From assembly GCA_020631855.1 (NCBI GenBank), contig JACKGU010000001.1, positions 103,601-167,600 on the forward strand: a stretch of 64,000 nt of DNA, in the 5' to 3' direction. The position numbers and the translations under genes are program-made. Of the stretch, positions 4,380-47,271 are shown piece by piece (positions within the stretch are counted from its first letter, which is position 1; each line of letters begins with the position of its first letter). Source of the DNA: Candidatus Nomurabacteria bacterium. Lineage in GTDB: Bacteria > Patescibacteriota > WWE3 > UBA101185 > UBA10185. The notes beneath the pieces are model-generated. The model was given only the letters and a program-made list of their open reading frames with translations, did no database searches and had not been told where the DNA came from.

Positions 4380-4516
4380 TAACGTGCGGCTTTACAATCT
4401 CGCTACTTAAAATTCCTGCATAAGTTAGTAGATGTAGTTTACCCAACATGTTAGGCTTTGCAACGCAAAGAGATTGCAGCAAACCACCCAGCGCAAGCTG
4501 GTGGTGGTTGATAATG
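4380..4516 (+). repeat. Intergenic roughly 125 bp repeat element, copy A (the 5' portion is divergent)
   Basis: The shared core is ...TTACCCAACATGTT.GGCTTTGCAACGCAAAG...GCAAACCACC..GCGTAAGCTGGTGGTGGTTGATAA. Confidence 0.7.
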
Positions 4517-4526
4517 TCAAGCTAAG

Positions 4527-5834
4527 GTGCTTAACTGTGCTTTTTTTGATAAAATAGGCACACAAAAAGTCATGCCGTTTTTAAAACGAAAACAAAAAAA
4601 CCTTGGCTCTAAAATTAAGAGCACCAGATTATGGACAGTCGCTATTAATAGGCCGAAATCTCGGAGGTTTTCTCAATTGAGTTTTGAAGGTTTTGTACCT
4701 AAAGGTACAAATAAACTTAATACTGTTTTTCGTTTAACTTTTTCCTTTTTCTCTTATATTTTCAAGTACTTCAAACTCAAGACAACAAAAACATTAAAAA
4801 TACCCGGCAAAGTCGCCCTATTTTCAGTCACTACTTTTATGAGTCTTAAAGCTTTTATGGTACGTAAACTAATATGGTCTCAGGGTAAGCTTGGTAGGCC
4901 TATTGCAACAGGTGTAGTTATGTCTGTGGTGCTAGCCCTGTTTTTTCTTGGAAAAATATTAAATAGCTCTACTTTGGTTGTGAGCCAGGAACTGGATTCC
5001 GGATATCTATCAAGTACAACCGATATCATACCCCAAACAAATACAGCTCTTACAACAGTGCCGGAAAGTCGTAAAAGGAATGAGTCTTTTATTTATATCG
5101 TTGAGCCGGGGGATACTTTATCTTCAATCGGTAATAAATTTAAAATCTCAACCGATGCTTTAAAATATGTAAACAGCCTTACCGACTCTTCCATAATTCG
5201 TACAGGTCAGGAAATTATCATTCCTCCGGTTTCGGGATTAATTCACACCGTTAAATCGGGCGACACTCTAAACAGCATTGCCCGTAAGTACGATGTTGCT
5301 CCTCAGGCTATTGCAGATTTTAACTATATTCTAGATACGTCTAAATTAGCTTTAGGTACAGAGCTCGTGATTCCCGGCGCCAAGGTTCCCGAGCCGGTTA
5401 TTCCGGCAGCTCCTTCGGGCCCTGCGGCTCCTCCGGGAAATTTTGTGTCCGCGCCTTCTACAGGAAAATGGTGTGTGTGGCCGACCGGGCCAAGGATTAT
5501 TACCCAATACTATTCTTGGTATCATAATGGAATCGATATAGCTACTCCTTCAGGCTCGGCCATGCCTGCTCTTTTTGCTTGCGCGGGCGGTGTAGTAACA
5601 AGAGCCGGTTGGGATCCCTTCGGCCTAGGACTGCATGTAAGGATAGATCATGGTAATGGTTTTGAGACTGTGTACGGGCATATGAGCAGCATTTCCGTAA
5701 GTTATGGTCAAAGAGTAGAGCAGGGGCAAATGATTGGAGTGATGGGTAGCACAGGGCGTTCTACCGGACCTCACGTGCATTTTACTGTTAACTACAACGG
5801 CGCGTCGCAAGATCCTTTAAAATATACTTATTAG
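4527..5834 (+). CDS. LysM-domain peptidoglycan endopeptidase of peptidase family M23; the true start is probably internal (ATG at 4839)
   Basis: Two LysM repeats are present (YIVEPGDTLSSIGNKF..., HTVKSGDTLNSIARKY...). The C-terminal M23 motifs are 'HNGIDIA', 'HVRIDHGNGFETVYGHM' and 'GSTGRSTGPHVHF'. The first roughly 100 codons are basic and of low complexity. Confidence 0.8.
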   Translation: MLNCAFFDKIGTQKVMPFLKRKQKNLGSKIKSTRLWTVAINRPKSRRFSQLSFEGFVPKGTNKLNTVFRLTFSFFSYIFKYFKLKTTKTLKIPGKVALFSVTTFMSLKAFMVRKLIWSQGKLGRPIATGVVMSVVLALFFLGKILNSSTLVVSQELDSGYLSSTTDIIPQTNTALTTVPESRKRNESFIYIVEPGDTLSSIGNKFKISTDALKYVNSLTDSSIIRTGQEIIIPPVSGLIHTVKSGDTLNSIARKYDVAPQAIADFNYILDTSKLALGTELVIPGAKVPEPVIPAAPSGPAAPPGNFVSAPSTGKWCVWPTGPRIITQYYSWYHNGIDIATPSGSAMPALFACAGGVVTRAGWDPFGLGLHVRIDHGNGFETVYGHMSSISVSYGQRVEQGQMIGVMGSTGRSTGPHVHFTVNYNGASQDPLKYTY

Positions 5835-5959
5835 TTTATAATTTTGTTACTAAAACCACTTGCGTAAGCTGTAGATGTAGTTTACCCAACATGTTGACTT
5901 TGCAACGCAAAGAAACTATTGCAAACCACCTGCTGCGTAAGCTGGTGGTTGATTAATTG
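5835..5959 (+). repeat. Intergenic roughly 125 bp repeat element, copy B
   Basis: It starts TTTATAATTTTGTTACTAAAACCACTTGCGTAAGCTGTAGATGTAGTTTACCCAACATGTTG... immediately after the TAG stop. Confidence 0.75.
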
Positions 5960-6091
5960 TGCTGATGCAGAGAGCTTCATTTCTCAGACGAGGGCGTAAA
6001 AGCGTAGAGTAAAGAAGATAGTACAAAACTAGATTCGTAGTATTTCATTCCTCTAGGCTTAAAGCAATTTGAGTGCTAGAATTGCCTAACT

Positions 6092-7255: not shown

Positions 7256-7306
7256 GTATTTCCTTTGCGCTTCTTAGCTTGAAAAAGTACGTAGAAGAAA
7301 GTATGT

Positions 7307-7383
7307 GGGCCTGTGGCGCAACTGGTTAGCGCGCCTCAATGGCATTGAGGAGGCTAGGGGTTCGAGTCCCCTCAGGTCCACCA
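7307..7383 (+). tRNA. tRNA-Ala (anticodon GGC), CCA encoded
   Basis: I folded the cloverleaf by hand. The acceptor stem is GGGCCTG/CAGGTCC with the G3:U70 Ala identity pair, the anticodon loop is AT-GGC-AT, and the T-arm is AGGGGTTCGAGTCCCCT. Confidence 0.85.
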
Positions 7384-7394
7384 AACCTCTTGTA

Positions 7395-11106: not shown

Positions 11107-11122
11107 TTTTTCAAACCTTTTT

Positions 11123-11246
11123 TTATAATTTCGTTACTTAAAACTACTTGCGTGAGCTAGAAAATGTAGTTTACCCAACAGGTTGGGCTTTGCAATGCAA
11201 AAAAATTACAACAAAACACCTGTGTAAGCCGGTGATGGTTGATAAG
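11123..11246 (+). repeat. Intergenic roughly 125 bp repeat element, copy C
   Basis: TTATAATTTCGTTACTTAAAACTACTTGCGTGAGCTAG...CCCAACAGGTTGGGCTTTGCAATGCAAAAA... Confidence 0.75.
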
Positions 11247-14253: not shown

Positions 14254-14343
14254 TAAAAGCAAAATTTTAAAATTTCGTTTTAGGGCGGTCTTTGTGTTAG
14301 TAAATAGGCTGTCCTTGTAGTTCTGTTCTGCTATACTTACACC

Positions 14344-20526: not shown

Positions 20527-20573
20527 GGTCTGTAGACTTTGCGTGTTTTATAATTTCGTTTTAACTCGTTTTT

Positions 20574-24858: not shown

Positions 24859-24881
24859 GTAATTTCATTTGGTTATAATGC

Positions 24882-26559: not shown

Positions 26560-26591
26560 CAAACCTATAACACTGTGGTAATATTTGAACA

Positions 26592-27947: not shown

Positions 27948-29572
27948 GTTTGGCGCAGGGTAGGAAAAGAGAGGACATGATTGAGGCTTTTTTATTATTA
28001 CATTTTTATCAGCCCTACGATCAAGAAAAGCATATAATCGACAGAGTGCTCAGGGAGTCTTATCTTCCTCTTATAAACCTATTTAGAGAAAACCCTTCCC
28101 TTAAGGCTATTTTTAATATTTCCGGTTCACTGACCAAGTTGTTATTGGAAAATGGTTATTCTGAGTTTGTCGATGGGTTGAAAGAGCTATTGATATCTAA
28201 TCAGATTGAGCTTACGGCGACCTCCATGTATCATGCTTTTCTACCTTTGTTGCCTGAAAAAGAAATATTAAGACAAATAAATCTAAATAATGATTTTTAT
28301 AAACAGCTTCTAGGGGATTTATATTTACCTTCTGGCTTTTATTCTCCTGAATTGGCAATAAGCGAGGAGTTGCTTTCTGTTGTGTCTTCTGAGTTTGGTT
28401 ACACATGGTTTGCCTGTCCGAAACTTTGTGTTGACGAGAAAGTTTATAATCCGAATTTACTTTATAGGCATAAATCTACCGGCAGCTTTTTATTTATTAG
28501 AAATAAGGAGATGAGCAATACTTTGCTTTCAGGTTATCTGCGAGATGAGAGGGCAGTAGATTCAGTAATTGCTTCTTCTGCTGACCGAAAGATCTTTAAA
28601 TGGTATTTGGCAATGGATGCAGAAACTTTTGGACACCATAGGGTGGGATATGTGAAAGACTTACAAAGACTGTTACTATCTGAAGAAATACACACTTCAA
28701 CCCTAAAGGATTGTGTTTCACAAGGGCCTCTTTCTGAGAAAACTGTGGATATTTCTGTCCGTTCTTGCACGTGGTCCAATACTGAGCAAGATTTTTGGTT
28801 GAAAAATGAAAGTGGTGAAGTATATGTAAATTCTTTTAGTTTATGGAAAGACAATGACAACCCTATTCATAGGTCTCAGTGGGAGTTGCTTGATTATGTT
28901 TTAGATATACTGAATAAGAGCTCTAAAGAAGAAAACTACTCTTATGCCAGGGAGGTAATGGATTATGCTGTTTCTTCAGATCAGTTTTGGTGGGCGAGCG
29001 CCAAGCCTTGGTGGAGTATTGAGATGGTAGAGAAGGGGGCTTATCTTTTAACCTCTGTTGTGGAAATGCTACACACAAAGGATAGTGAGGAGTACCATAA
29101 GGCACAGGCTCTGTATCAAGAAATAATGAGAAATGTCTTTTGGTGGCATAGAACAGGAAGATCTAAAAATCTTGGAATTACCCCCGAAGAAAGAGGGCAT
29201 GGTGAAAAAAAGGACCCAATGTTGCTCAGAACTTCTCCGGAATGGTTTAATCAGATTATGTTGGAATTGGAGTATGAGATGCTTCGGGCAGAACAAACAA
29301 AAAACTACGAGTTAGCAATAAAATGGCGTGACGCAATATATAAACTTTCTCTCATGAACGATGACTTAGATGTTTTACATGTGGTGGATGAGCTGTGGTC
29401 TTTCAGACCTGATCCGTGGAACACCACCCTGGTCAAACCTTTTTTGGAGCATGATTGGTCAGAGTTTTCTGATTTTATAAAAAAATTCCTTATTTATGTT
29501 TCTTCCGAGGAAGATTTATTGTACTGGAAAGAGCATAAAAAGCCTAAAAAGCACCAAAGCATTAGTTTATAA
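27944..29572 (+). CDS. GH57-family glycoside hydrolase-like protein (paralog)
   Basis: 'LLHFYQPY' and 'DAETFGHH' are present. It overlaps the upstream gene by 4 nt. Confidence 0.5.
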   Translation: MSLAQGRKREDMIEAFLLLHFYQPYDQEKHIIDRVLRESYLPLINLFRENPSLKAIFNISGSLTKLLLENGYSEFVDGLKELLISNQIELTATSMYHAFLPLLPEKEILRQINLNNDFYKQLLGDLYLPSGFYSPELAISEELLSVVSSEFGYTWFACPKLCVDEKVYNPNLLYRHKSTGSFLFIRNKEMSNTLLSGYLRDERAVDSVIASSADRKIFKWYLAMDAETFGHHRVGYVKDLQRLLLSEEIHTSTLKDCVSQGPLSEKTVDISVRSCTWSNTEQDFWLKNESGEVYVNSFSLWKDNDNPIHRSQWELLDYVLDILNKSSKEENYSYAREVMDYAVSSDQFWWASAKPWWSIEMVEKGAYLLTSVVEMLHTKDSEEYHKAQALYQEIMRNVFWWHRTGRSKNLGITPEERGHGEKKDPMLLRTSPEWFNQIMLELEYEMLRAEQTKNYELAIKWRDAIYKLSLMNDDLDVLHVVDELWSFRPDPWNTTLVKPFLEHDWSEFSDFIKKFLIYVSSEEDLLYWKEHKKPKKHQSISL

Positions 29573-29688
29573 TTTCGTTACTTGAAACTACTTGTGCAAG
29601 CTAGTAGATGTGGTTTATCCAACATGTTGGGCTTTGCAATGCAAAGAAATTACAGCAAACCGCCTGCATAAGGTGTTGGTGATTTATA
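29567..29688 (+). repeat. Intergenic roughly 125 bp repeat element, copy D (its 5' end overlaps the TAA stop)
   Basis: TTTATAATTTCGTTACTTGAAACTACTTGTGCAAGCTAGTAGATGTGGTTTATCCAACATGTTGGGCTTTGCAATGCAAAG... Confidence 0.75.
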
Positions 29689-29743
29689 GATTCGGCAATG
29701 TTCGTTTGTATTAAACAGCTCTCTTTTTTGCTATCATTGTTTT

Positions 29744-31126
29744 ATGAAGGTTTTATTTGTTACTTCTGAGGTTGCTCCAATAAGAAAATTCGGTGGTTTA
29801 GGAGATTTTTCCGCGTCATTGCCCAAAGCCCTGTCGGGTTTGGGGGTCGCTGTCGATATAATCTTTCCTTACTATGCTGAAAATAAGTTAGAGAATTATG
29901 TTGTGACTAAACTGATTGAACTGCAGGTACCTTATAACAATAAAAGTCATACTATCCCATTCTATTGCATAAAACTTAATAGCGACTTGAGGGTTCTAAT
30001 GCCCAAAATAACCCACTCAAACTTGCCGGTAGATAATTATTCCGATGTAGAATTTTTCTCTTTTTTTAATAGGTGCGTGGTTGAATACATTAAAAGTCAG
30101 TACAATACGTACAATGTCGTTCATTGCAATGATTGGCATGCGGGTTTTGTTACGCATATTTTGGAGCAAGAATTGGGGCATGACAGGCCCAAGACTCTTT
30201 TAACGATTCATAATTTTGGCTATCAGGGTGTTTTTGATCCTGTAATTGTCATGGAGATGGGACTGACGCCCGGTGAGCATCCCTTAGTCGATTGGGACAT
30301 ATCTGACGGGGATGTTAACATGCTTTTACAGGGTATTGGTTCTAGTGATTTTGTTAACACGGTGTCGCCGTCTTATGCGTCAGAGCTCATGGAGCAGCAG
30401 GAGGTTGCAGATAGTCCTCAAATTATTCAAGTACTTTTAGGAAGAAAAGATAGATTTAAAGGTATATTAAACGGAATTGATTATACTCAGCTGCCGAGAA
30501 GTTTTTCTGCGCAAGATTTCAAAAAGCATAAGAGCGAGACGAAGAGGATGTTGCAGGAGAAGTTTAAACTTGATTTAAAAGAACAGGCACCTCTTTTTTC
30601 TTTTATCTCTAGATTAGATCCGGGGCAAAAAGGTTTAGACATTCTTTTCGAAAGTGTTAAGACAATAGATGCTATAGAGGGACAGTTTATTTTATTAGGA
30701 ACAGGGGACAAGGCGTGGGAAAAGAAGTTTTCCGACATACTGTCACATAATATGTCTGTTAATATCACTTTTGACGTTGAGTTAGCAAACGCTATTTATT
30801 CTGCCAGCGATTTCTTTTTTGTGCCTTCTAAGTATGAGCCTTGTGGTTTGACTCAGATGATGGCCATGTGGTACGGTGCGCTGCCGATAGTGCACAATGT
30901 TGGGGGCCTAAAAGATACTGTGGTTGATGGAAAGAACGGTTTTGTTTTTGATGACTATTCTTCGAAAGCTCTCTCCGAAGCAATTATAAGAGCCTCCGAA
31001 GTTTATAAGAATAGACCCGTACTGGACGAGATGATCAAGTCCGCCATGTTAGCAGATTTTAGCTGGAAGATAAGCGCTTTGGAGTATAAACGGTTGTATG
31101 AAGATTTGGTAAGAGGTACTATTTAA
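29744..31126 (+). CDS. glgA: Glycogen/starch synthase (GT5), second paralog
   Basis: 'MKVLFVTSEVAPIRKFGGLGDF' and the C-terminal 'GGLKDTV' are present. Confidence 0.75.
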   Translation: MKVLFVTSEVAPIRKFGGLGDFSASLPKALSGLGVAVDIIFPYYAENKLENYVVTKLIELQVPYNNKSHTIPFYCIKLNSDLRVLMPKITHSNLPVDNYSDVEFFSFFNRCVVEYIKSQYNTYNVVHCNDWHAGFVTHILEQELGHDRPKTLLTIHNFGYQGVFDPVIVMEMGLTPGEHPLVDWDISDGDVNMLLQGIGSSDFVNTVSPSYASELMEQQEVADSPQIIQVLLGRKDRFKGILNGIDYTQLPRSFSAQDFKKHKSETKRMLQEKFKLDLKEQAPLFSFISRLDPGQKGLDILFESVKTIDAIEGQFILLGTGDKAWEKKFSDILSHNMSVNITFDVELANAIYSASDFFFVPSKYEPCGLTQMMAMWYGALPIVHNVGGLKDTVVDGKNGFVFDDYSSKALSEAIIRASEVYKNRPVLDEMIKSAMLADFSWKISALEYKRLYEDLVRGTI

Positions 31127-32118: not shown

Positions 32119-32181
32119 GGGACTACGGGCGTTTGGATTTTTCCTCAGCCACTTTTTTCTCACGGTTTGGTATTTGTGTTT

Positions 32182-32305
32182 TTATAATTTAGTTACTTAA
32201 AACTACTCGCGTAAGCTGGTAGGTGTAGTTTACCCAACATGTTGGGCTTTGCAGCGTAAAGAAGTTACAGCAAACCTCCTGCGTCAGCTAGTGGTGGTTT
32301 ATTGG
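32182..32305 (+). repeat. Intergenic roughly 125 bp repeat element, copy E
   Basis: TTTATAATTTAGTTACTTAAAACTACTCGCGTAAGCTGGTAGGTGTAGTTTACCCAACATGTTGGGCTTTGCAGCGTAAAG... Confidence 0.75.
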
Positions 32306-35983: not shown

Positions 35984-38900
35984 TTATTTTATGGTTATAA
36001 TCCACCAATCAAATTCTATATCTTCTGTTACCGGACTGTTGGTTTTAACAATAAAGTATTCTTTTTCAGCCTTTTCATATACGTATAGCACCTCGTTATA
36101 GGTATTGCTAGTTGGTGTTATTATGACCTTGGAGTTGGCATCTATTGATTTTGTTTCTATTTTTACCTCGGTACTTTCGGCTTTCAAGACCCCACTGCCG
36201 ACATAGTCGCTGTCTTTATCAAATACAAGCTCTGAAGTTTTGATTTGTGCCGCTTCAACCTCTCCCTCAATACGAACTGTTCCATCTGCTTCAAATAGAA
36301 TAGCGCCGTCCATAAAATCTATGTTTCCGGACAGATTCTTTTGGAAGTATATGGTTTGTAGTTCACATAGTTCTTCATTTAGGCTACCTGTTGCTTTGGT
36401 GTAACATGAAGGTCCAATAACACTAAGCTCGTTTGTTAGAGACTCAAGTCTAATGCTTCCAACTTGAAGATCTTTGGTAATTGTTAAACCACCAAGTGTT
36501 GTATCTCCTGTAACTAGGAAGTTTGCATCAAGGGTCATTGTTGTAGTACTGTCTTGAGTTTGAGTAGTAAGTCCAAGAGCTTCTGCGAATCCTTTAAAGG
36601 ATTCATATGTATCTTTAAGCTCTTGAATCTTGGAATCAATGTATGTGGTATCTTCAGGTGTGACTTCGATTGTATTAGTTTGAGTTAGATTGGTTTGAGT
36701 TTCCGTATCAACTTCAAGCTGTGCTAATTGTTCTTGCAGATCCTCGATCTTCTGCTCTTGTTCTTGGATACCTTTAATAAGGTAGGGGACTAGATGGTGG
36801 TATTCAATTGACCATGTGTTTGCGGGATCATCAGGTTTATCAACTACCTGCGGTAGATACTCATATACATCTTGAGCAATAAGCCCTGTTGCTCTTCCTC
36901 TATCTGCCCATTTTGTTCCTTCTTTCCAATCAAAATCAACAACTTCAAAACGATTAATTAATTCAAGTGCATTAAGATTTGATGTTTCAATATTATCTTT
37001 AAGTCTTCTATCTGATGCTGTAACGTTAATAGAAGCATTACCGATATACATAGTAGTTGAACCTGAACCATTTGACGAGTCATCAAGTAGATTAGCATCG
37101 ACCGCGTTACCTATATGAAAGCCTCCTCCTGCATATACAATATCTCCGACATCTAAGAAATCTCTAAAGTAGCTATAGCCGTTTGAAACTCCAACATGAA
37201 ACACTTCATCATAGATATCTCTAACCACAAAACTCTTACCTGATGTTCCTCCTGCATCAAGACGTAAATATCCATCTCCGCTACCGAAGCTTTCTGTATA
37301 GAGAGAGGTGCTCTTGCCGTAGCTGTCTTCCAGCTCAAGGTTTCCGACAACATGAAGCTCAGAGCCGGGGGTTGTTGTACCGATTCCAACGCGGTCTGTG
37401 CCTGCGTTGACATAAAAAAGAGCCGAGTTTGAGGACCCTCGAATGTTGAAATCGATATCCGTAGCCGCGGGATTAACATACATTATATCTGAGGTCCCTT
37501 CTGAAAGCCTTAGAAAAGCTGCTCCTCCTGCTACCACATCAAGCTGATCATCAGTAAAAGATAGGTAGGTATTAGCGTCCCCATTATGATATATGTACTG
37601 ATCTAAGCCTATATCTCCGGCAACATCAAGTGCGTAGTCTGGGGCGGAGGTTCCTGCACCTATTCTTCCGTTCGCGGCTACCGCGCTTAAAACTGTCCCG
37701 CCGGTGTCTTTCCACTCTTGAAGGTTCGAAGACTGGCTCGTAATACCTTTTACTGTCAAAGGCACGCCGGCTGAGTTTTGAGAGTGAATTGTCAATCCTG
37801 CTCCCGCACCTGAAAATAGTCCGTAGATTAAAGGAGTAGTTGTGCTTGAGTTTGCAATATATAGGGTATTTGAACCTCCCTCGTTATATCCTGCTTCATA
37901 TCCTAAGAATACGTTTGAACTTCCGTTTAACGAATAGCCGGCTCTTGATCCAACAATTGTGTTATAGTCAAGGCCGGTTCGAACTGTAAAATTCGCATAT
38001 CCGGCCATATAGCCCAAAAACGCATTCCTAGTTCCGCCAATTCGAGATCCAGACATTGCTCCTATTGATGTGTTTCCTGACTCTGTAGTATTGCCCAAAA
38101 ATACATAGCTTCCCACCCCGACATTACTGCCTCCGGAGGTATTTGCGGTAAAATTACTTGTTCCTATAACATTATTGCTACTTCCAGAAATGTTATTTTG
38201 AAGTGCGCCATTTCCTATTGCTACATTTGCAATTGCAGTTGTAGAGTAGAGCATTGCGTTCATTCCAATTGCGGTATTGTTATATCCTACGGTGAGGTTA
38301 GATAGTGTGGCTGCTCCAATAGCCGTGTTGCCACCAGCATTACCGTCAGGGTTTCTACCGTCGAGGTTATATAGGGCAGAGTGACCAATTGCAACATTAT
38401 TGATGCTGTATTTTGCTTTCTGCAATGTTCCGTACCCTATGGCAACGTTTTGAACACCGGTTTCGTTTGCATAGAGAGAAGCTCCTCCGATAGCAACATT
38501 GTACCCGGTGCCCGCATAGCTCATGCTTGCTAGAGAGCCGGAACCGATAGCTACATTTCTACTAGTCGAGACGGCGCTTCTAAGGGCGCTGTCACCCAAG
38601 GCAACATTTCCCGAGCTTGCTAGGCCTAGGTATTGCAGTGCGTTTGTTCCAAAAGCAAAGGCACCGTTCAGAGATCTTTGTTCGTTGACAATTGTTCCTG
38701 TGTCATCAAGCAGCACCACCGCTGCAGAGTTTTTAGTCACTAGTTTTACAGATACGTTATCTATTGATCCGTCGAAATCAGATGAGGGGGTAAATACAAG
38801 CCCGCCGCTTGCTCCTGCAGTAATAACCGGTGCAAAATTATTATTTGAATCATATGTAGTTAAATTTGGTGATTGTGCGCCATTTACTTTCACTCTTACT

Positions 38901-41900
38901 GTACCCGCAGTCATGTTTTTTATTTGAAACTGAACAACATACACAGATCCGTTTGAAAAAGAAATGGCCTGGCTGAGGTCGGCCGTTGCTCCGGCTGTAT
39001 GGGTAGCATATCCTGAAGCATTCCATGCCCAGTTTGTACCATATGTCCAATCGGAAGATGTTGCAAAGTCGCCGTTGGTTACCATTTCTGATCCAGGGGC
39101 AGTAATTGCCGACTTGCCCCTGAACGTAGATATGCCGGTATCAGAATCAACTGAAAAATAGTTTACGGCGGAACTATTTTGTACAGCTAAAGTTTTTGTA
39201 AATAGGCCTGCCCCATCTTTGCTAATACTGGCGAGTACTGTACCCCCGTTATTCTGCCACTCTTGCAAGTTAACGCTTTGCCCCGAAGCCCCTTTTACAA
39301 GAAGCCCTTTGCGAGCTGAGGTGGGGGATTCAATTTTTACTTGCGTTCCCGCATCTATGCTTGCGGTTCCGAAGGTAGAAACAGCTCCGCTGACAGTAAA
39401 ATAAGTCGAGTTGATATTTGTATAGGTAGCTTCTAGCGTGAGTTGCCCAGTGCCGTTCCTATATAAAAATGTATCAGACCCTAGAGCAATGCCTCCGGTT
39501 GCGGTAGTGTGGTTTGCAATTTCAAGTGCATGTGTTGCCGAGGTTGTTCCAATTCCAATATTACCGCTAGCATCGATAATGAAAGGAGTAGTGTCTGATC
39601 CTACATCGTTAACTCTAAAACTGTTTCCTGTACCTGTGTTGGTTATTGAAAATTCCTCACTACCATCTACTGCGATATCTGTACTTGCGTCAAGAGCCAT
39701 AGCATCTTTAAATTCAGTGAAGTCAAGAGAATCTGCAGTTATTGCTGTTGCTCCTATTGTACCTCCACTTAGTACGCCGGAAGAGGATGTCACTACCCCA
39801 TCAGATAATCCACTAAACGTTATTGTTCCGCTACTCGTGATACCTGCTGCCGCTATTATCTGCCCACTGCTATTTACCTGAAACAGATCTCCATTGCCTA
39901 CTGTTAATGCTGATGCGGGAGAGGTGTCCCCGATGCCGACTTTACCTGTTATTGTCATATTTGCAAGATATCCCCCTGAGTTTAGAACTCTTATATAACT
40001 GTCAGCATCATTTCTCCAAGCGTCAAGACCCAGCTCTGTCCTTGTTGCTCTAAATGTGCTTGTGCTTGAATCTCGAACAATAGAAGTAGCCTTACCGTTT
40101 ACGGTGTCAAAAAAGAATCTAACAGTACCTCCGTTGTCTCCTGCAATCTCGAGAGGATAGCTAGGGCTTGTTGTCCCAATCCCCACATTGCCGTTGTCTA
40201 AAATTACTACCTCACTTGTAGTATCGCCGTCAGGATCAAAGCCAAGATAATTACTGGTAGTGTTATATCCCAGGATAGCTTCATTGCCAGTATCACCAAT
40301 ATGAATACTCGATCCTTTTACAAATAATTCAGTCCAGCGAGAACTTGATGAACCAAGACTACTCACACCATCAGCCGCAGGCAAGAAATCATCAGAAGCA
40401 ATTAAGTCAGAACCGTTCCATCTAAGATATTCAGTCGCACCGTTTCCAAAATAGAGATAATTAGCCAACTCAATATCACCGGCCACGTCCAGTAGCTGGC
40501 CGGGACTGGCTGTTCCTATACCTACATTGCCCGAAGAATTTATGACCATTCTTTGTGTTCCAGAGGTTGTTGTGTTATTGGCAGCTGTAGTAAAGATAAT
40601 ATCTGTTGCAGCATTTAACAAAGAAGTGCCTCCGCCAAAATTTATAACATTTGTAGAAGTCCCGGACCCAGCATTAAAAATAGCAAATGGTTCTTCAGCG
40701 TTATTGTAGTGAGCAATTCCAAGTCGGGCATTTTTTGAAGTCGCGTCTGTTCTTGTTGTATATAAATTATCTGCCCCCAGTAAGAGTGAAACTGAACCGT
40801 TTGATATATCGAGTCCTGCACTAGGGGTATTCGTACTAATACCTACAAGGCCGGCAGTATCTATAAATAGTCTTTGAGTTCCATCTGTAAGTAAGGCAAG
40901 GCTTCGGGCCGACCCACCGCCGGAGCCTTTTGAAGTTCCAACACTCAACACATTCGAGCTCCAATAAAAATCACCACGTTCGTATGAGGTTCCCGAGGAG
41001 TAGGTATTATAGATTCGGAAGGACTGCGCATTTGTAGAGTTTCGAAGTGAAATGTTGTTTGCACCGTCGGAAAGTAAAAATGCACTAGGCCCTGTTGTGG
41101 AATTAAACCCAAGAGCATAGCCGGCTTGTATTGCTAACGCCGCAGTGGCATTGTTGATGCCTAGTAAATCGGCACCGGATTTTGAAAAGAATATTGCCGA
41201 CCCGCTTTGTCTCATACCTATTCCGGTTGCATTTCCAAAAGATAATGACGGGGCCGCTGCGGTTCCATCAGGCAGCAAAAGTTGCCCTGATGCTAGCTCC
41301 AAAGTACCCCCCGGCGTTGCGGTTCCAATGCCAACTCGGTGTGTGCTTGAATCAACATATAAATCATTTGTGTTTACTGTAAAGTCTCCGGTTCCGGAAA
41401 GTCCGATGTTGAAGTTACTCCCGCCCGCAGGATTAAAAGTTATCGCGCCGGTTGTTTGAGTAAAGGTTGTTGAGGCACCGTCAAGCGTGACACTAGTGCT
41501 TGCAATATTTAAGGCGCCGTCTACATTAAGATCTCCCGCTATAGTTAAAGTATTTCCGGACTCATAGGTGTCGTTTGCGTTTGATCTCAAAAAATCACTC
41601 CCGGCAAAAGATCCCAGCTGGTCAGCCGTTTTAGCATTAAATGCGTAAGGGACAGCTGCTAAAGTTTTTCTTGGAGAAAAGGTTTCTCCTTCTGAAAAGT
41701 CTCCGTTACCGCTAGGATCAAATTCAACCTCAATAAATAAAGATCCGCTGGTAAAATCAGGTCCCCCGTTCTGGTTACAGCTTGAGAAAGTTCCTCCGCA
41801 ATCTAGTTCTAATGTGAATACGTCGCCGAAGTCATCAAGCTCGACATCCGATTTTGTTTCTTGCCACACAAGTGTTCCTCCAGAAGAGGAAGTATATATG

Positions 41901-42163
41901 CTGACTCTAAAGTCGCATGTATCTGCGCCGCTTGTATTAATACAAGCGGCGTCCGAACTTGTTAAATTTGTGCCATCAGGGTTAACGATTTTTCCCTGGT
42001 AAACTAGGGCCTCGTTAATTGCAGCAAAAACTTTATGCCCAAAATTATTTAGATGATTGATAAGTAATAAAATAAAGAGTAAAGCCACAAATCTTGCAAC
42101 AGGCTTAGCCAAGCCCTTAGTTGCAAGTACTATGCGTTTGTAGGCAGTAGTTGTTAAGTTCAA
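35984..42163 (-). CDS. Giant (2059 aa) secreted/anchored fibre protein resembling a phage tail fibre, with GIGTxxP collar motifs, Gly/Asn-rich beta-helix repeats and a C-terminal peptidase-S74 intramolecular-chaperone domain
   Basis: An N-terminal signal-anchor is present. The collar motifs recur (RVGIGTATPGGTLELA, NVGIGTASPGQLLDVAGD, NVGIGTTSPSYPLEIAGD, RVGIGTTTPGSELHVVGN). The repeats are 'NVAIG..SL / NTAIG' type. The C-terminus carries 'SDRRLKDNIE...IEYHHLVPYLIKGIQEQEQKIEDLQ', which is the CIMCD cleavage/chaperone signature. Confidence 0.75.
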   Translation of the reverse strand: MNLTTTAYKRIVLATKGLAKPVARFVALLFILLLINHLNNFGHKVFAAINEALVYQGKIVNPDGTNLTSSDAACINTSGADTCDFRVSIYTSSSGGTLVWQETKSDVELDDFGDVFTLELDCGGTFSSCNQNGGPDFTSGSLFIEVEFDPSGNGDFSEGETFSPRKTLAAVPYAFNAKTADQLGSFAGSDFLRSNANDTYESGNTLTIAGDLNVDGALNIASTSVTLDGASTTFTQTTGAITFNPAGGSNFNIGLSGTGDFTVNTNDLYVDSSTHRVGIGTATPGGTLELASGQLLLPDGTAAAPSLSFGNATGIGMRQSGSAIFFSKSGADLLGINNATAALAIQAGYALGFNSTTGPSAFLLSDGANNISLRNSTNAQSFRIYNTYSSGTSYERGDFYWSSNVLSVGTSKGSGGGSARSLALLTDGTQRLFIDTAGLVGISTNTPSAGLDISNGSVSLLLGADNLYTTRTDATSKNARLGIAHYNNAEEPFAIFNAGSGTSTNVINFGGGTSLLNAATDIIFTTAANNTTTSGTQRMVINSSGNVGIGTASPGQLLDVAGDIELANYLYFGNGATEYLRWNGSDLIASDDFLPAADGVSSLGSSSSRWTELFVKGSSIHIGDTGNEAILGYNTTSNYLGFDPDGDTTSEVVILDNGNVGIGTTSPSYPLEIAGDNGGTVRFFFDTVNGKATSIVRDSSTSTFRATRTELGLDAWRNDADSYIRVLNSGGYLANMTITGKVGIGDTSPASALTVGNGDLFQVNSSGQIIAAAGITSSGTITFSGLSDGVVTSSSGVLSGGTIGATAITADSLDFTEFKDAMALDASTDIAVDGSEEFSITNTGTGNSFRVNDVGSDTTPFIIDASGNIGIGTTSATHALEIANHTTATGGIALGSDTFLYRNGTGQLTLEATYTNINSTYFTVSGAVSTFGTASIDAGTQVKIESPTSARKGLLVKGASGQSVNLQEWQNNGGTVLASISKDGAGLFTKTLAVQNSSAVNYFSVDSDTGISTFRGKSAITAPGSEMVTNGDFATSSDWTYGTNWAWNASGYATHTAGATADLSQAISFSNGSVYVVQFQIKNMTAGTVRVKVNGAQSPNLTTYDSNNNFAPVITAGASGGLVFTPSSDFDGSIDNVSVKLVTKNSAAVVLLDDTGTIVNEQRSLNGAFAFGTNALQYLGLASSGNVALGDSALRSAVSTSRNVAIGSGSLASMSYAGTGYNVAIGGASLYANETGVQNVAIGYGTLQKAKYSINNVAIGHSALYNLDGRNPDGNAGGNTAIGAATLSNLTVGYNNTAIGMNAMLYSTTAIANVAIGNGALQNNISGSSNNVIGTSNFTANTSGGSNVGVGSYVFLGNTTESGNTSIGAMSGSRIGGTRNAFLGYMAGYANFTVRTGLDYNTIVGSRAGYSLNGSSNVFLGYEAGYNEGGSNTLYIANSSTTTPLIYGLFSGAGAGLTIHSQNSAGVPLTVKGITSQSSNLQEWKDTGGTVLSAVAANGRIGAGTSAPDYALDVAGDIGLDQYIYHNGDANTYLSFTDDQLDVVAGGAAFLRLSEGTSDIMYVNPAATDIDFNIRGSSNSALFYVNAGTDRVGIGTTTPGSELHVVGNLELEDSYGKSTSLYTESFGSGDGYLRLDAGGTSGKSFVVRDIYDEVFHVGVSNGYSYFRDFLDVGDIVYAGGGFHIGNAVDANLLDDSSNGSGSTTMYIGNASINVTASDRRLKDNIETSNLNALELINRFEVVDFDWKEGTKWADRGRATGLIAQDVYEYLPQVVDKPDDPANTWSIEYHHLVPYLIKGIQEQEQKIEDLQEQLAQLEVDTETQTNLTQTNTIEVTPEDTTYIDSKIQELKDTYESFKGFAEALGLTTQTQDSTTTMTLDANFLVTGDTTLGGLTITKDLQVGSIRLESLTNELSVIGPSCYTKATGSLNEELCELQTIYFQKNLSGNIDFMDGAILFEADGTVRIEGEVEAAQIKTSELVFDKDSDYVGSGVLKAESTEVKIETKSIDANSKVIITPTSNTYNEVLYVYEKAEKEYFIVKTNSPVTEDIEFDWWIITIK
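36252..37333 (-). repeat. 1082 bp segment 100% identical to 47632..48713 (the shared 3' cassette of the two giant fibre genes, present as direct copies)
   Basis: Base-by-base comparison gives a constant offset of 11380. Identity breaks at 36251/47631 and at 37334/48714. Confidence 0.9.
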
Positions 42164-42225
42164 ATTTTTTCAGTTAGTTTCTTAAATTAACTATTTATAA
42201 GTTTATATTAATCGAATATGGAGTG

Positions 42226-43698
42226 TCAAAGATTTCGCTTGGATTTTGTAAGTTTTTTATATAGCAGGTAGTTGTTAAGATAAATGAAGACAAAGATTAC
42301 TGCCCAGACTATAGGGTCGTAATTTATATGTAAAGTAATGTCTTTGGTATAGAAAATATGTTTTTGGGTTGCATAGAACAGCTCCCGATGAACCAAAGGG
42401 GAAACCCCCACATCTATTTTATAAAGCCCCTGTTCAAATAGTAGGCTGTAGTCACCGTTCTTTGAAGTAAGTATGGGCGTTCCTTCAAAAAAATTAGTTG
42501 GCGTATAAGAATTCCAGACGTCTTTTTCATAATCGTATTGGTATAAACTTAGTCTGGCGTTTTTTACCGGACCGTCCTTAACCACCTTAGCTGTTATTAA
42601 AGCATTCGCGAACCGCCCCACGTGTTTAACTTTTATTAGCCCTAGTTTATCTAGAACAATAGGGATTTTCACTGTTTGAGGCTTGTTTGTGTTTTTAAGT
42701 TTAATCAAAATCAAGAGCTCGGAATATTTTTCTGTTGGCTTGATTTTGAAATATATGTTTTTATTTTTTGAATAGTAGTCGGAGGTGCCGTAAAGCAACG
42801 TGTATTCCTGTACTTCTTTTGGAAACATGAGGTTAAATCCTATTTCTGTCTCAGGTACTGTGTAGACTGGATATCCGTTTTCTCTAAAGAATAGCTCGTA
42901 GGGTATCCCTTCGACATCCACGTCGATTCTTATGTTTATGTCGTCTTTCGGATCTAGCGGATTGGTGCTATTTTCGATCTCGTCTCCATCTCTTATGCCG
43001 CCGCCGTCAGTGTCCGGGAGCAGGGGACTGGTGCTATACACTTTGACTTCCCGGAAATCGTTTAGCCTGTCATTGTCGGTATCTTTATAAAATGCGTTTG
43101 TTTTATATATTATTATTTCTTCATAATCATCTAGCCCGTCGTTATCGGTATCGCGATTTTTTGGATTTGTGTAGTATATAAATAATTCGTCGTAGTCATT
43201 TAATCCGTCCCCGTCTGTGTCTATATTGTAAGGATTAGTGCCAAAATATTTTTCGCTTATGTTGGGAACTCCATCTCCGTCGCTGTCAGCTCTGGGATCG
43301 GTGCCGGCCTTGTTGTCTTGCTTCTTATTATCATTGTCTGTTCCTTTGTTTACGCCTTCATAGTCGTCTGATGGGTCTAATGGGTTTTTGCCCTGACTTA
43401 TTTCCAAGCCATCCATTAGGCCCCCGCCATCTGTATCGGGATTAATCGGACTTGTTGTATAGCCATATTCCTGCAGGTTTAGCAATCCGTCATTGTCATT
43501 GTCAAGTGTAGCATCGCCCCCATCCCCGGGGTCTAGCCCATACAAGATTTCCCATGTATTGGGCATTCCGTCTTGGTCGTTATCATTTGAAACCTCAAGC
43601 GTTACTGTAGTTTGCTGTACTGTATCGGCAAAAGCCGGACTTAAGTGCGCCCAGTAAAGTCTAAGCATAGCGATAAGAAATATTAGGCAGTATGTCAT
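42226..43698 (-). CDS. Secreted protein with thrombospondin type-3-like Ca-binding repeats (DxDxDG), a beta-sandwich region and a C-terminal transmembrane anchor
   Basis: Repeated 'DTDGDGLNDYDE', 'DTDNDGLDDYEE', 'DSDGDGVPN' and 'DTDGGGIRDGDE' motifs are present. The C-terminal hydrophobic 'IVWAVIFVFIYL' is followed by a basic tail. Confidence 0.55.
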   Translation of the reverse strand: MTYCLIFLIAMLRLYWAHLSPAFADTVQQTTVTLEVSNDNDQDGMPNTWEILYGLDPGDGGDATLDNDNDGLLNLQEYGYTTSPINPDTDGGGLMDGLEISQGKNPLDPSDDYEGVNKGTDNDNKKQDNKAGTDPRADSDGDGVPNISEKYFGTNPYNIDTDGDGLNDYDELFIYYTNPKNRDTDNDGLDDYEEIIIYKTNAFYKDTDNDRLNDFREVKVYSTSPLLPDTDGGGIRDGDEIENSTNPLDPKDDINIRIDVDVEGIPYELFFRENGYPVYTVPETEIGFNLMFPKEVQEYTLLYGTSDYYSKNKNIYFKIKPTEKYSELLILIKLKNTNKPQTVKIPIVLDKLGLIKVKHVGRFANALITAKVVKDGPVKNARLSLYQYDYEKDVWNSYTPTNFFEGTPILTSKNGDYSLLFEQGLYKIDVGVSPLVHRELFYATQKHIFYTKDITLHINYDPIVWAVIFVFIYLNNYLLYKKLTKSKRNL

Positions 43699-43816
43699 TG
43701 CTATAATAATAATTCACCGAGCTCCTTTAGTCACTATATTCTTATATTTCTGGGGTATCCGCCTTATTTAGAAGAAAAAAATTCATGTAGTAACGAGGAA
43801 GTGCGCTGTATTTAAT

Positions 43817-43938
43817 TTATAATTTCATTACTTAAAACTGCTTGCGTAAGCTAGTAGACGTAGTTTACCTTACATGTTGGGTTTTGCAACGCAAATAAAT
43901 TACAGCAACCCTCCTGTGTGGGCTGGTTGGCTTTAAAA
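43817..43938 (+). repeat. Intergenic roughly 125 bp repeat element, copy F (between two minus-strand genes)
   Basis: TTATAATTTCATTACTTAAAACTGCTTGCGTAAGCTAGTAGACGTAGTTTACCTTACATGTTGGGTTTTGCAACGCAAAT... Confidence 0.7.
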
Positions 43939-43951
43939 AAATAACTTCGTA

Positions 43952-44944
43952 TTAGCTAAGTTTATTCTCTTTTTTAAAGGATAGCGCCGCGCGCCAAAGT
44001 ATAAATAGTGACAGTAGAACGCCAAGCAGTACTGTGAGTAGGAACTTCAAAGGAATTAGCCAAAAAGTAGTATCTGCTTCCATGGTGTTAAGCCTTTCGG
44101 TCGTGCCGTATTTTAGCAATATATTTGCTTGAATTTTTCCCATTGGCGGAACTAAGCCCCTTTTCGTTATTGTTGTTTTTTCTGAAAAGCTTCTATCCGG
44201 TGATTCCGGTAGCATTGTACTTTGGCTTTGATTAAAGATGGTATTAATTGGAGGAAAGAACCTGTTACCCTCAATAAATATTGCTCCGGTGGGTATGATA
44301 TGAACATTTCCTGAGTTTTTAATAGTTGTGGAAAATTCTATTTCAGGATTTTCAACGAAGTAAAATTTTTTATTTGTTTTAAAATCTACAATAGACGCAT
44401 TTTCTTCAATTTCTCCCGGAACAGTAGTTAGTATTAAGCTTGCCACTCTACCTATTGTTCCTACTCTTGAGCCTTCGTTTGCGTCAGGTTTTTCCGATTG
44501 AACAAATATGGCAGCGTAGTGCCCTCCTGTAGTTGCATTTTGCGGAACAGTAATGGTATAAGGTATTTCTATTGTTTCATTATCTTCAAGTTCTACTACG
44601 TCTTGCGCAAATGTGATCCAGGTTCGAAGAGAGTATGTGTTAGAGCCCTCCTCTTCCTGATTTTCTATAAAAGTAGGTGTTCCGTCGTTAGATAGAACTA
44701 AAAAATCTCTTGCGTAAATATATAAAGTTTTTTTAGATCCTGAGTAGTTTCCCAGCCTGAGTTTTTTTTCGTAGGTTTTTCCTTGTTCTATATTAAAGTT
44801 ATTCTTAGCAGGGGACAGTTCTATGTTTAAAGCCTGTGCGTTAGCTGTTTTATATGCGATTGAGGCAAAAGATGCCGAAATAATCACACCGATTAAACAT
44901 GTGAGCAGAAAATCTTTAGACTTAGCTATATCTTTAATATTCAT
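43952..44944 (-). CDS. Cell-surface protein with an N-terminal signal peptide and a C-terminal transmembrane anchor plus short basic tail (architecture reminiscent of DUF916/DUF3324 Gram-positive surface-complex proteins)
   Basis: The N-terminus is 'LLTCLIGVIISASFASIAYKTANA'. The C-terminus is 'FWLIPLKFLLTVLLGVLLSLFILWRAALSFKKENKLS'. Confidence 0.4.
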   Translation of the reverse strand: MNIKDIAKSKDFLLTCLIGVIISASFASIAYKTANAQALNIELSPAKNNFNIEQGKTYEKKLRLGNYSGSKKTLYIYARDFLVLSNDGTPTFIENQEEEGSNTYSLRTWITFAQDVVELEDNETIEIPYTITVPQNATTGGHYAAIFVQSEKPDANEGSRVGTIGRVASLILTTVPGEIEENASIVDFKTNKKFYFVENPEIEFSTTIKNSGNVHIIPTGAIFIEGNRFFPPINTIFNQSQSTMLPESPDRSFSEKTTITKRGLVPPMGKIQANILLKYGTTERLNTMEADTTFWLIPLKFLLTVLLGVLLSLFILWRAALSFKKENKLS

Positions 44945-44965
44945 ATCAAAATCATTTTACGGCAG

Positions 44966-45928
44966 TTAGTTGTTAGTTGCTACAGTAACCGTGACTATTT
45001 GATCGTATTCTCCGGCAACTGTAGTACCGGCAATGCTGGCTTTGTAGGTTAGTGTAAGCGTGGCCGCGTTTACAGCCGCAGTACTGTTAGCAATATTGGT
45101 GGCAGATGTAGGAACAGCATCGTCTCCGGAGTCAAATGGAGATTGCGCTGTCAGCCCCGATACGGCTGTTGATATTCCGTACTCTTCTGATCCTGCGGTC
45201 ACAGTTCCGTCAGCAACGTCGTTTATATCATTGCCGCTGCCATCGTTTAGCGCTGCATCCGCAGATATTTTAAGTTGTACGCCGGTAACGTTATTTGAAT
45301 TTACTGTGTAGGTTTGGGAGGCTGAGCTCACGGCTGTGGTTGTCAAAACCCCTAAATCCATGGTGACGTCATTTACCGCTAGGTTTACAAAAAGAGGCAC
45401 GGAAGCAGTTACAGTAGTAGTGTTAGTATTTGTTTTTATTCCTACACCATAGTCAAGAGAATTATTTGTTGAATCGGTTGTTGTTATAGCAACAGATTGT
45501 TGAGCATAAGTTGTTGAAGTGTAAGATGTAAGTCCGTCAGTCATTGCAACTGTTATGGCTGTAGAACCTGATATAGAAGCATCGAGCGTTATTGTAATTG
45601 TGTTTGCCGTGCTGTTGTTTGATCTGGTTGGTGTAGTTTGGCCTGTAACTGTTATGTTTGTTCCGGAAGCATTTATTGTTGCTTGAGTAGGAAAGGTTAG
45701 AATAATTTTGTCTCCGCTCGATAAAGCTGTTGTGTTGGTGAATACAACAGTAGTAGTTCCGGGGGAAGCAGACTGTGCCCATGTTCCATCGGATATTTTT
45801 GTTGCCGCCTGTACTTTGCCACCAAAAACAATCAGCATTAGTATATTTATATTTATTAAATAAGCAATTAAATAGATGGGAATGGTTTTAGCTAAAGACC
45901 TTTTTGTTAGTATTTTTCGGCAGTTCAT
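44966..45928 (-). CDS. Thr/Ser-rich secreted surface protein with a conserved C-terminal 'KASIAGTTVAGEYDQIVTVTV' strand motif
   Basis: A signal-anchor is present. The composition is roughly 35% Thr/Ser/Ala/Asn. It is paralogous at the C-terminus to the divergently transcribed 46036..47154 gene. Confidence 0.45.
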   Translation of the reverse strand: MNCRKILTKRSLAKTIPIYLIAYLININILMLIVFGGKVQAATKISDGTWAQSASPGTTTVVFTNTTALSSGDKIILTFPTQATINASGTNITVTGQTTPTRSNNSTANTITITLDASISGSTAITVAMTDGLTSYTSTTYAQQSVAITTTDSTNNSLDYGVGIKTNTNTTTVTASVPLFVNLAVNDVTMDLGVLTTTAVSSASQTYTVNSNNVTGVQLKISADAALNDGSGNDINDVADGTVTAGSEEYGISTAVSGLTAQSPFDSGDDAVPTSATNIANSTAAVNAATLTLTYKASIAGTTVAGEYDQIVTVTVATNN

Positions 45929-46035
45929 GGGCCCTTTCTTATTACGTAGAAAATTAGAACTTTTAGCCTGTAATAATTACATACAATGCTAGAGATTGTT
46001 TTTTGTTTTGTCAAGTTTAATCTATAATAGAGCAT

Positions 46036-47154
46036 ATGCTCGGAAATTATGAAAAATCAAGGACAACTGCTATTACTAATAGAAATGTAATTCAGGACGT
46101 TAACTTTAGCAGGCGGGCTATTGTTTTATCTGTTTTCATTTTTTTATACTTTTTCTTATTAAGTAGTTTCTTATCGATTAGTGCTCAGGTACCCGCAAGC
46201 TCGAGTTTTGTAATTAAGGGTGAAAATGTCTCTCCTTCCGGAGGTGTGGGCTCTACCCCCAATTTCATGTTAAATGCAGATTTAAGCCCTTTCTCTCAAA
46301 GCCCTGCTGATGCCAGCTCATTTAAAGCTTATATAGGTTATAATCCTCGTATACAGGCTAATACACCTTACGAACCAACTCTAGACAATGCTACCGGTCA
46401 ATACTACGATAGGTTACTACTTACCATTGACCCTTCGGGAAACCCCACAGATACTCTTTTTGCTGTTGCGATATCGGCAAACTCCTGGAGTACCACATAC
46501 TATGTACAAAACGATAACACTCTAGCATTGTCTTTAGGCCCTGAGGATTACAGAACTTATGCGGGTTGGGGAGGATCGGGAGGCACCCTGATCTTAGGGC
46601 TGAGCCCTTCCTCTTCTTATGTTGCCAAAGTTAAGGCCTTGAACGGTGATTTCACTGAGACTTTATATGGCCCGGAATCTTCTGCTGTAGAAACAGTGGT
46701 GCCTTTTATTAGTTTGTCTGTTTCTTCTTCTGTTTCGGAATTTGGGGTTTTAAGTGCAAATGAAATTAAATCGGCCTCTTCTGTCGATCTTTCTGTTACT
46801 ACAAACGCGGAGTCAGGTTATTCTCTCTCGGTAAATGGTACGGGCAGCGGTGTTCAGCCCGGACTGTACAATGGGGTGGGTAATGTCATAGTTTCTCAAG
46901 ATACTGTTCTTTCAGTTGGTACAGAAGGTTACGGAGCTCAGGGCTCCTCAGGTACTGCAACGATTTCTTCCAAATACGATTTAGCTGGTGACTTTGTAGG
47001 CAGCTTGGATCTATCTCCTCAGGAGCTTGCCTCCAACTCTGTGCCGGTTTCTGGTGATAGTTCTACCATAACTTTCAAAGCTTCAATTTCCGGAAATACC
47101 GTTGCCGGAGAGTATGAAGACATTGTTTATTTCACTATCTCCCCATCTTTATAA
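46036..47154 (+). CDS. Thr/Ser-rich secreted surface protein, a paralog of 44966..45928 (C-terminal 'KASISGNTVAGEYEDIVYFTI')
   Basis: An N-terminal transmembrane or signal sequence and the shared C-terminal motif are present. Confidence 0.45.
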   Translation: MLGNYEKSRTTAITNRNVIQDVNFSRRAIVLSVFIFLYFFLLSSFLSISAQVPASSSFVIKGENVSPSGGVGSTPNFMLNADLSPFSQSPADASSFKAYIGYNPRIQANTPYEPTLDNATGQYYDRLLLTIDPSGNPTDTLFAVAISANSWSTTYYVQNDNTLALSLGPEDYRTYAGWGGSGGTLILGLSPSSSYVAKVKALNGDFTETLYGPESSAVETVVPFISLSVSSSVSEFGVLSANEIKSASSVDLSVTTNAESGYSLSVNGTGSGVQPGLYNGVGNVIVSQDTVLSVGTEGYGAQGSSGTATISSKYDLAGDFVGSLDLSPQELASNSVPVSGDSSTITFKASISGNTVAGEYEDIVYFTISPSL

Positions 47155-47271
47155 TTTCGTTACTTAAAACTACTTGTGTAAGCTAGTAGATGTATTTTAT
47201 CCAACATGTTGGGCTTTGCAACGCAAAGAAATTACAGCAAACCATCTGTGTAAGCTGGTGTTGGTTGGTAG
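47149..47271 (+). repeat. Intergenic roughly 125 bp repeat element, copy G (overlaps the TAA stop of the upstream gene)
   Basis: TTATAATTTCGTTACTTAAAACTACTTGTGTAAGCTAGTAGATGTATTTTATCCAACATGTTGGGCTTTGCAACGCAAAG... Confidence 0.75.

Follow-up and report, generated by a model that had tools for sequence, protein, structure and literature searches.

Repeat copies and their genetic context

A family of short intergenic repeats was examined in a 64 kb stretch of the genome of a Candidatus Nomurabacteria bacterium (GenBank accession number JACKGU010000001.1; coordinates 103,601 to 167,600), referred to here as the window. An earlier note on this DNA had described seven full copies, all on one strand, and a profile search with nhmmer, built on those copies, returned exactly seven full-length matches, all in the + orientation (4392-4513, 5836-5956, 11123-11244, 29567-29688, 32182-32303, 43817-43936 and 47149-47270; E 1.7e-32 to 6.5e-39), and nothing else in the 64 kb better than E=2.8. 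A covariance model run with filters off recovered the same seven copies at 108-145 bits with the next match at 16 bits, and as no score falls between 108 and 16 bits, the window is without degenerate, partial or minus-strand copies. The family was also recovered independently by general repeat finding in the window (family D5).

The window was placed by exact-protein matches on the 520 kb contig JACKGT010000005.1 of the metagenome-assembled genome (MAG) GCA_020631805.1, and the contiguous DNA covered was 82 kb, made up of the window and flanks of 10 kb on its right and 8 kb on its left. Three more + copies were found in the right flank (locus L005; 13262, 17366 and 20068), and none in the left flank. 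One further copy is carried by another short contig (L002) from one of the same metagenomes, presumably from the same organism. Sequences were aligned for the 11 distinct copies (seven in the window, three in the right flank and one on the other contig), each with 40 nucleotides (nt) of flank, and orientation and spacer counts refer to the ten copies mapped in the 82 kb, with the spacers counted by hand from the gene map and the neighbouring genes named from Pfam listings. The copies are spaced 1.4-18 kb apart at a density of ~1 per 8 kb, and the family fills ~1.5% of the stretch.

The repeated unit is 122 nt long and comprises the pentanucleotide TTTAT and an inserted element of 117 nt directly 3' of it. 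The copies reported earlier are real, with limits that needed adjustment, as the block starts one base earlier, at TTTAT, and ends with ...GGTTGAT.

Copy A (4391..4512, + strand; nhmmer E 1.8e-35, covariance model 121 bits) has a degenerate target motif, TTTAC, ahead of the 117 nt element and is located between rho, which ends at 4369, and a gene for a LysM/M23 peptidase. Its start had been placed at 4380, and the first 11 nt of that version belong to the flank. In copy B (5835..5953, +), which has small indels and lies upstream of obg, TTTAT follows directly on the TAG stop of the LysM/M23 gene, as had been noted. Copy C (11122..11243, +) lies upstream of comEA and begins 15 nt past the stop codon of a gene of the ArsR family. 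Copy D (29566..29687, +) follows a GH57 gene, the TAA stop of which is made up of the T of TTTAT and the first AA of the element. Copy E (32181..32302, +) lies in the spacer where a galT-like gene (+) and rplL (-) converge, and copy F (43816..43937, +) is found between two minus-strand genes (43952-44944 and 42226-43698) and is antisense to local transcription. Copy G (47148..47269, +), the nearest to the consensus (94%), is in a convergent spacer beside a giant minus-strand gene, and its junction forms the TAA stop of a gene for a protein of 372 amino acids (aa).

The surroundings of copy D are a cluster of glycogen-metabolism genes (24949-31126; 26443-26486 vs 31043-31086) that includes two GT5 starch-synthase-like genes and two GH57 paralogues in tandem, and the copy separates the second of the GH57 genes from glgA. 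Several public contigs assembled from short reads (L015, L016, L025-L027 and L029) end inside copies A, F and G, which is to be expected of a multicopy repeat.

Boundaries and structure of the unit

The left boundary is sharp, with TTTAT in 10 of the 11 aligned copies and TTTAC in copy A, and the right boundary falls at ...GGTGGTTGAT, after which the next base is A or T in all copies. The termini of the element that adjoin the target read TTTAT|AATTTCGTTAC on the left and GGTGGTTGAT on the right. Across the 11 copies and their 40 nt flanks there were no terminal inverted repeats and none of the target-site duplications that the earlier note had raised, and the flanks are unrelated.

From left to right, the unit consists of TTTAT, the left junction, 17 nt (AATTTCGTTACTTAAAA), a left hairpin, two internal hairpins, a right hairpin, TGG, TTGAT and the right junction, which is 8 nt past the foot of the right hairpin. 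In copy G (+ strand), the proposed pre-existing target motif, or transposon-adjacent motif (TAM), TTTAT (47148..47152) adjoins the left end and is followed, 17 nt inside the left junction, by an imperfect palindrome (47170..47189; consensus CTACT-T-GC-GTAA-GC-T-AGTAG) with a conserved T.T mismatch. The two internal hairpins (47200..47228) have the consensus sequences CCCAACATGTTGGG and CTTTGC-AAC-GCAAAG, and the right imperfect palindrome (47242..47261; consensus CCACC-T-GC-GTAA-GC-T-GGTGG) is a direct repeat of the left one. The terminal pentanucleotide (47265..47269), TTGAT in the consensus and TTGGT in copy G, is the proposed right cleavage motif. The earlier consensus, with its two direct sub-repeats, the 14 bp palindrome CCCAACATGTTGGG and the CTTTGC-AAC-GCAAAG hairpin, was borne out by the alignment. 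The left and right halves of the unit are direct repeats, identical at 27 of 38 positions (score 33, compared with 14.8 +/- 3.3 for shuffled sequences), the T.T mismatch is retained in both outer hairpins, and both of these hairpins are predicted in DNA folds as well as in RNA folds.

Copies D and G had been reported to contribute the TAA stop of the upstream gene, and in both this stop was found to span the left junction. Exact deletion of the element from copy D (29571-29687) brings an in-frame TAG back at the same codon, giving a protein of 542 aa, and the same deletion from copy G (47153-47269) again brings back an in-frame TAG at the same codon, giving the 372 aa protein. The chance of a TAG being restored in both is ~(3/16)^2. 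Of the evidence in the copies themselves, this restoration speaks most strongly for the junctions and for insertion into a TTTAT|AG site that was already there, and D and G are the two informative copies on which the placing of the target motif outside the element rests.

A 5' fragment of the repeat had also been reported at 20547, and this proved to be an exact 14-mer, TTTATAATTTCGTT, to which a second solo motif, missed earlier, was added at 14266. With up to one mismatch, the 14-mer is expected ~0.11 times per window and was found 8 times. The motif TTTAAAATTTCGTTTTA (14266..14282, +) is 13 nt past the stop of a + gene and the motif TTTATAATTTCGTTTTA (20547..20563, +) is 21 nt past the stop of a sortase gene, each matching only the first 14 nt of the unit. 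The two have an exact 12-mer in common, AATTTCGTTTTA, and can be combined in the form TTTAWAATTTCGTTTTA. They could represent a target-like site, a relic of an element end or a separate signal.

Position and polarity of the copies

Of the ~29 tandem ++ spacers in the map, 5 contain one of the ten mapped copies, as do 4 of the 8 that are convergent, 1 of the 13 that are tandem -- (copy F) and none of the 8 that are divergent, indicating that copies are found at gene 3' ends and that spacers containing only promoters are avoided. Nine of the ten follow a + gene, often 0-65 nt past its stop, and the gene map bore out the earlier count for the window of six copies in seven located after a + gene.

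All ten copies in the contiguous 82 kb are in the + orientation (two-sided p = 0.002). The GC skew of the + strand is positive in 14 of 16 4-kb bins and ~64% of genes are on that strand, from which the + strand is taken to be the leading strand, and so to have the same sequence as the lagging-strand template. The polarity is better explained by replication than by transcription, as the genes on either side of copy F are on the opposite strand and the four copies in convergent spacers were free to take either orientation. That all of these are still + also goes against the idea that the copies share a strand because they follow + genes.

The copies are all full length and show 82-94% identity to the consensus and 70-90% identity to one another. 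This star-like divergence is what a single burst from one master sequence would give if the copies had since decayed almost neutrally.

A candidate mobile element

The repeats may well be decaying relics of a non-autonomous, gene-less element of the IS200/IS605 type (palindrome-associated transposable element, PATE), a reading that is held here with moderate confidence. As no transposase gene was found in the 82 kb and no empty site was found, membership of this group is unproven.

PATEs are known from Haloquadratum walsbyi (PMC3119063), and PATE-like ISGst elements from Geobacillus stearothermophilus (PMC10055086). Like them, the family described here is short, without an open reading frame (ORF), inverted termini or target duplication, has stem-loops in the same orientation near both ends, is inserted 3' of a conserved pentanucleotide and has many copies that would be mobilisable in trans. 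Its terminal pentanucleotide is related to the target motif, which also agrees with the IS200/IS605 system and its gene-less derivatives. The TAM of ISGst2 is likewise TTTAT, and ISGst elements are accompanied by PATE-like copies (PMC10055086). However, neither tnpA nor a full-length insertion sequence (IS) was found for the present family, its ends share no sequence similarity with described IS ends, its host belongs to the Patescibacteria (candidate phyla radiation, CPR), and its copies are old (10-18% diverged) and probably immobile. Of the known kinds of element, PATEs are the nearest to it by mechanism.

Imperfect subterminal palindromes are also found in IS608 and ISDra2. In IS608, the cleavage sites are 19 nt (left) and 10 nt (right) from the hairpins (PMC3201880), and the corresponding distances here are 17 and 8 nt. 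IS200/IS605 members insert with the active strand on the lagging-strand template (PMC5027513), and the skew points to the same placing in the window. However, IS608 and ISDra2 are 1.3-1.8 kb in length and carry tnpA and tnpB, whereas the element here is 117 nt and has two extra internal hairpins. TTGAT, the pentanucleotide at the right end, is also the target motif of ISDra2.

From the junctions, the anatomy, the polarity in the 82 kb and the burst and decay of the copies, we infer an enzyme, a circle of single-stranded DNA (ssDNA) and a link to replication. The two top-strand hairpins would be bound by a Y1 (HUH) transposase, the gene of which is at another site in the genome or has since been lost, and the element would move as a single strand by "peel-and-paste" via the ssDNA circle, with its orientation fixed relative to replication. 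Selection would then spare only insertions in short spacers at gene ends. Two insertions would have landed inside a TAG stop codon, for which the element supplied a replacement TAA, and the present copies would be drifting nearly neutrally.

A number of observations weigh against this reading. No Y1 transposase, RAYT (see below) or TnpB gene was found in the Pfam listings for the 82 kb. The 25 loci of the host organism found in NCBI, ENA, JGI and Logan are all at least 99.9% identical to the window and contain the same copies, and among them there was no empty site and no presence/absence polymorphism, so that mobility is putative. Precise excision would not leave motifs such as those at 14266 and 20547. 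Copy F is the single copy in which a polarity set by replication can really be told apart from one set by the genes, and the direction of replication is read from GC skew and gene-strand bias, there being no origin or terminus in the 82 kb. In IS608-type elements, the two end motifs are recognised through guide bases that precede the foot of each hairpin on its 5' side (PMC3201880), and candidate guides can be drawn in the consensus at equivalent positions 5' of the hairpins, TTTAT with TTAAA and TTGAT with AGCAA, each able to pair at 4 of 5 positions in AT-rich sequence and in an uncertain register. The T/G difference between the two end motifs is matched by A/C in the candidate guides, and many copies have mutated ends. 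This pairing is AT-rich and not diagnostic, and is only suggestive.

Other machinery could have moved the element, namely a rolling-circle HUH enzyme of the IS91/ISCR type, a site-specific recombinase or an unknown system, with the uniform orientation owed partly to coincidence or selection. The junctions, the 5' target, the missing duplication and the star-like family do not by themselves name an enzyme, and elements of the IS91 type likewise integrate beside a short target that is not duplicated. However, twin direct subterminal hairpins at IS608-like distances, together with a lagging-strand-template polarity, are specific to IS200/IS605, DDE transposases would call for inverted repeats, the unit has no single long palindrome of the attC type, and the neighbours are housekeeping genes with no integrase or cassette array. 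Such an origin appears unlikely.

Tests for a structured RNA

The repeat could alternatively be a structured RNA that acts in + strand transcripts, either as a module of the 3' untranslated region (3'-UTR) that is transcribed together with the upstream gene and acts as a stabiliser or as a signal for processing or termination, or as a multicopy small RNA (sRNA) with its own TATAAT promoter. In keeping with this, nine of the ten mapped copies follow a + gene, and the consensus folds into four hairpins, two of which have GNRA-type loops (GTAA), with loop variants that are mostly GNRA (9 of 11 in the left hairpin). Among derived pairs on the + strand, G.U exceeds A.C by 32 to 16; however, C>T is the commonest substitution on that strand, so that the excess is not evidence for RNA. 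Copy F runs antisense to the genes on both sides, and a density of ~1 copy per 8 kb exceeds by far that of known sRNA families.

The hairpin positions are 90% paired across the copies, but changes on the two sides of the pairs are independent. Covariation in the 11 copies, a number that limits the power of the test, was no higher than in shuffles (score 0.147 vs 0.157; 448 of 500 shuffles as high), and only 1 double compensatory change was found in 359 cells, so the compensatory substitutions for which the earlier note had proposed a test were not seen above the shuffled level. The uncompensated CCTTAC of copy F that the earlier note had picked out was seen in the alignment. In the stem columns there were 59 changes compared with 67 expected, and conservation is not clearly higher in stems than in loops. 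Differences in divergence between regions mostly disappeared after correction for base composition (p = 0.04 when copy B, which aligns badly, is included and 0.15 without it). Minimum-energy folds differ between individual copies, and the fold energies of the + and - strands (-27.6 vs -25.2 kcal/mol) were not significantly different (p = 0.12). With no covariation above shuffles, near-neutral decay and strands that fold about equally, the lean of the earlier note towards a repeat acting at the DNA level was upheld.

Signals for transcription were also considered. The element begins with a perfect TATAAT, but the TG extension is present in no copy and there is no conserved -35, and an sRNA with its own promoter is therefore poorly supported, the more so as the apparent promoters of the host do have the TG. 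Only GGTTGAT(W) comes after the last hairpin, and this contains no T-run, whereas canonical terminators with a hairpin and a T-run are present elsewhere in the genome, for example near 24880 and 62300. In a scan with promoter and terminator consensus sequences, matches were no more frequent than in shuffles and the repeat copies were not picked out. An intrinsic terminator is poorly supported, as there is no T-run after the last hairpin and the terminator scan missed the copies, and the same holds for the 3'-UTR or terminator role that had been offered as one option. No match was found in Rfam for copy G, either at the gathering threshold or at E up to 10. Taken as a whole, a function of the repeat as RNA is quite unlikely.

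The likely host promoters take the form of extended -10 boxes (TGnTAnnnT), which in many cases precede an ATG by 7-15 nt (e.g. 14332, 21771, 46023 and 6077), and the genes that they lead have no evident Shine-Dalgarno spacing. Because the boxes are only 7-15 nt before the ATG, this arrangement suggests that leaderless mRNAs may be widespread in this CPR bacterium.

Relationship to other repeat families

No match to the consensus was found by BLASTN among plasmids or phages. A 26-nt degenerate core pattern gave one chance match only among genome contigs (L001), none among viral contigs, and three contigs from metagenomes that all belong to the host organism (L002-L004). A twin-hairpin pattern found 13 loci in viral contigs, all of them unrelated tandem repeats and most clearly coding, and nothing relevant was found in the literature on REP-type repeats in Patescibacteria. 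Within the collections searched, the family thus appears to be lineage-restricted. The closest homologues of the GH57 protein encoded in the window are from Patescibacteria / candidate division WWE3 and are no more than 47% identical, indicating that the host belongs to an isolated CPR lineage with no close relative. Lineage-specific proteins, joined into a query of 2281 aa, matched no paralogue in a protein database from which the host seems to be missing.

REPs are single hairpins of 20-40 nt, and BIMEs and REPINs pair them in inverted orientation; the REP-associated tyrosine transposase (RAYT) is related to the transposase of IS200/IS605. The repeats could be a host family of this kind, mobilised by a RAYT and possibly serving also as a protein-binding or nucleoid element. 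They resemble REPs, BIMEs and REPINs in being intergenic hairpin repeats near gene 3' ends, absent here from 8 of 8 divergent spacers, and of a sort thought to be moved on ssDNA by a Y1 HUH enzyme; membership of the same enzyme superfamily would account for the ssDNA hairpins. The central perfect palindrome between two hairpins also recalls BIMEs that contain an IHF site. However, REP pairs are inverted and have no fixed outer junctions, whereas the hairpins here are direct repeats in a fixed 117 nt unit, the junctions of which are defined and which has a target motif on its 5' side. Strict polarity on one strand is not a described property of REPs, and the Pfam listings for the 82 kb include no RAYT gene. 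We regard this origin as rather improbable.

The copies may also have been co-opted by the host or by a resident nuclease, with the + strand transcribed as an omega-RNA-like scaffold, borne by a PATE and with its guide in the 3' flank, for a TnpB or IscB encoded elsewhere, or with the twin GNRA hairpins forming a polar signal in DNA or RNA that is oriented by replication and marks the ends of genes in a streamlined CPR genome. In that case the two solo 5' motifs would have a function and would not be debris. We consider co-option very unlikely.

Several further candidates were set aside. A classical miniature inverted-repeat transposable element (MITE) with terminal inverted repeats, including the form with a preference for gene ends suggested earlier, is poorly supported by the alignment, which has neither terminal inverted repeats nor a target-site duplication. 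Correia/NEMIS, RUP, ERIC and Nezha are likewise 100-150 bp, intergenic, present in high copy number and potentially co-transcribed, but have terminal inverted repeats, TA or longer target duplications and both orientations, none of which is seen here. Integron attC sites, including the Vibrio cholerae repeats (VCR, about 124 bp), are similar in length, have a single orientation and are found directly after ORFs, but they consist of one long imperfect palindrome with RYYYAAC...GTTRRRY cores and are located in cassette arrays next to an integrase. No such cores are present in the repeat, and attC was rejected on account of the four separate hairpins, the lack of an integrase among the listed neighbours and the lack of a cassette array. 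A riboswitch or leader was rejected because the genes downstream have no relation to one another. The element is too long for an uptake sequence or a polar motif of the KOPS type, and CRISPR was set aside as there is no array.

Other features of the window

Two giant minus-strand genes are present at 35984-42163 (2059 aa) and 47364-52937 (1857 aa). Near their 3' ends they share an identical 300 nt (36252-36551 = 47632-47931), which extends to ~1.1 kb at 98% identity. One has long arrays of degenerate 51-nt (17-aa) repeats (~49227-51137), and one has Pfam matches to Peptidase_S74 and HTH_17. They probably encode surface or adhesin proteins that undergo gene conversion. Their 3' flanks were considered as a filled and empty pair for copy G and rejected, as the flanks are not homologous.

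The segment 19440-19527 (-) was identified by Rfam as tRNA-Sec (47.7 bits, threshold 47) and by ARAGORN as tRNA-Ser (TGA), and is most likely an ordinary tRNA-Ser with a long arm. At 1453-1545, a very GC-rich repeat with a 24-nt period (CCCCCGGTCTCGGCCCCCACGG...) is found in a minus-strand ORF (1315-1692) in surroundings of 40% GC, and probably encodes a low-complexity segment rich in Gly and Pro. Within 1-4455, 1-2 small gaps distinguish the window from other loci of the host, and this repeat is a candidate site for them. A region of 830 nt (22911-23742) has no ORF over 73 aa and no Rfam match, in an otherwise tightly packed genome.

Significance

The genomes of Patescibacteria are small and tightly packed and are usually seen as repeat-poor. 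If the repeats are relics of a PATE, a single-strand transposon would once have swept through this one. The copies rewrite stop codons, and they break short-read assemblies and fragment the MAGs of the host lineage. Their fixed polarity may serve as an independent marker of the direction of replication in MAGs. The family represents an incremental addition in an unusual host, not a new principle. If a matching TnpA or TnpB were to be found, the copies would provide a compact natural set of substrates for peel-and-paste transposition in an episymbiont lineage.

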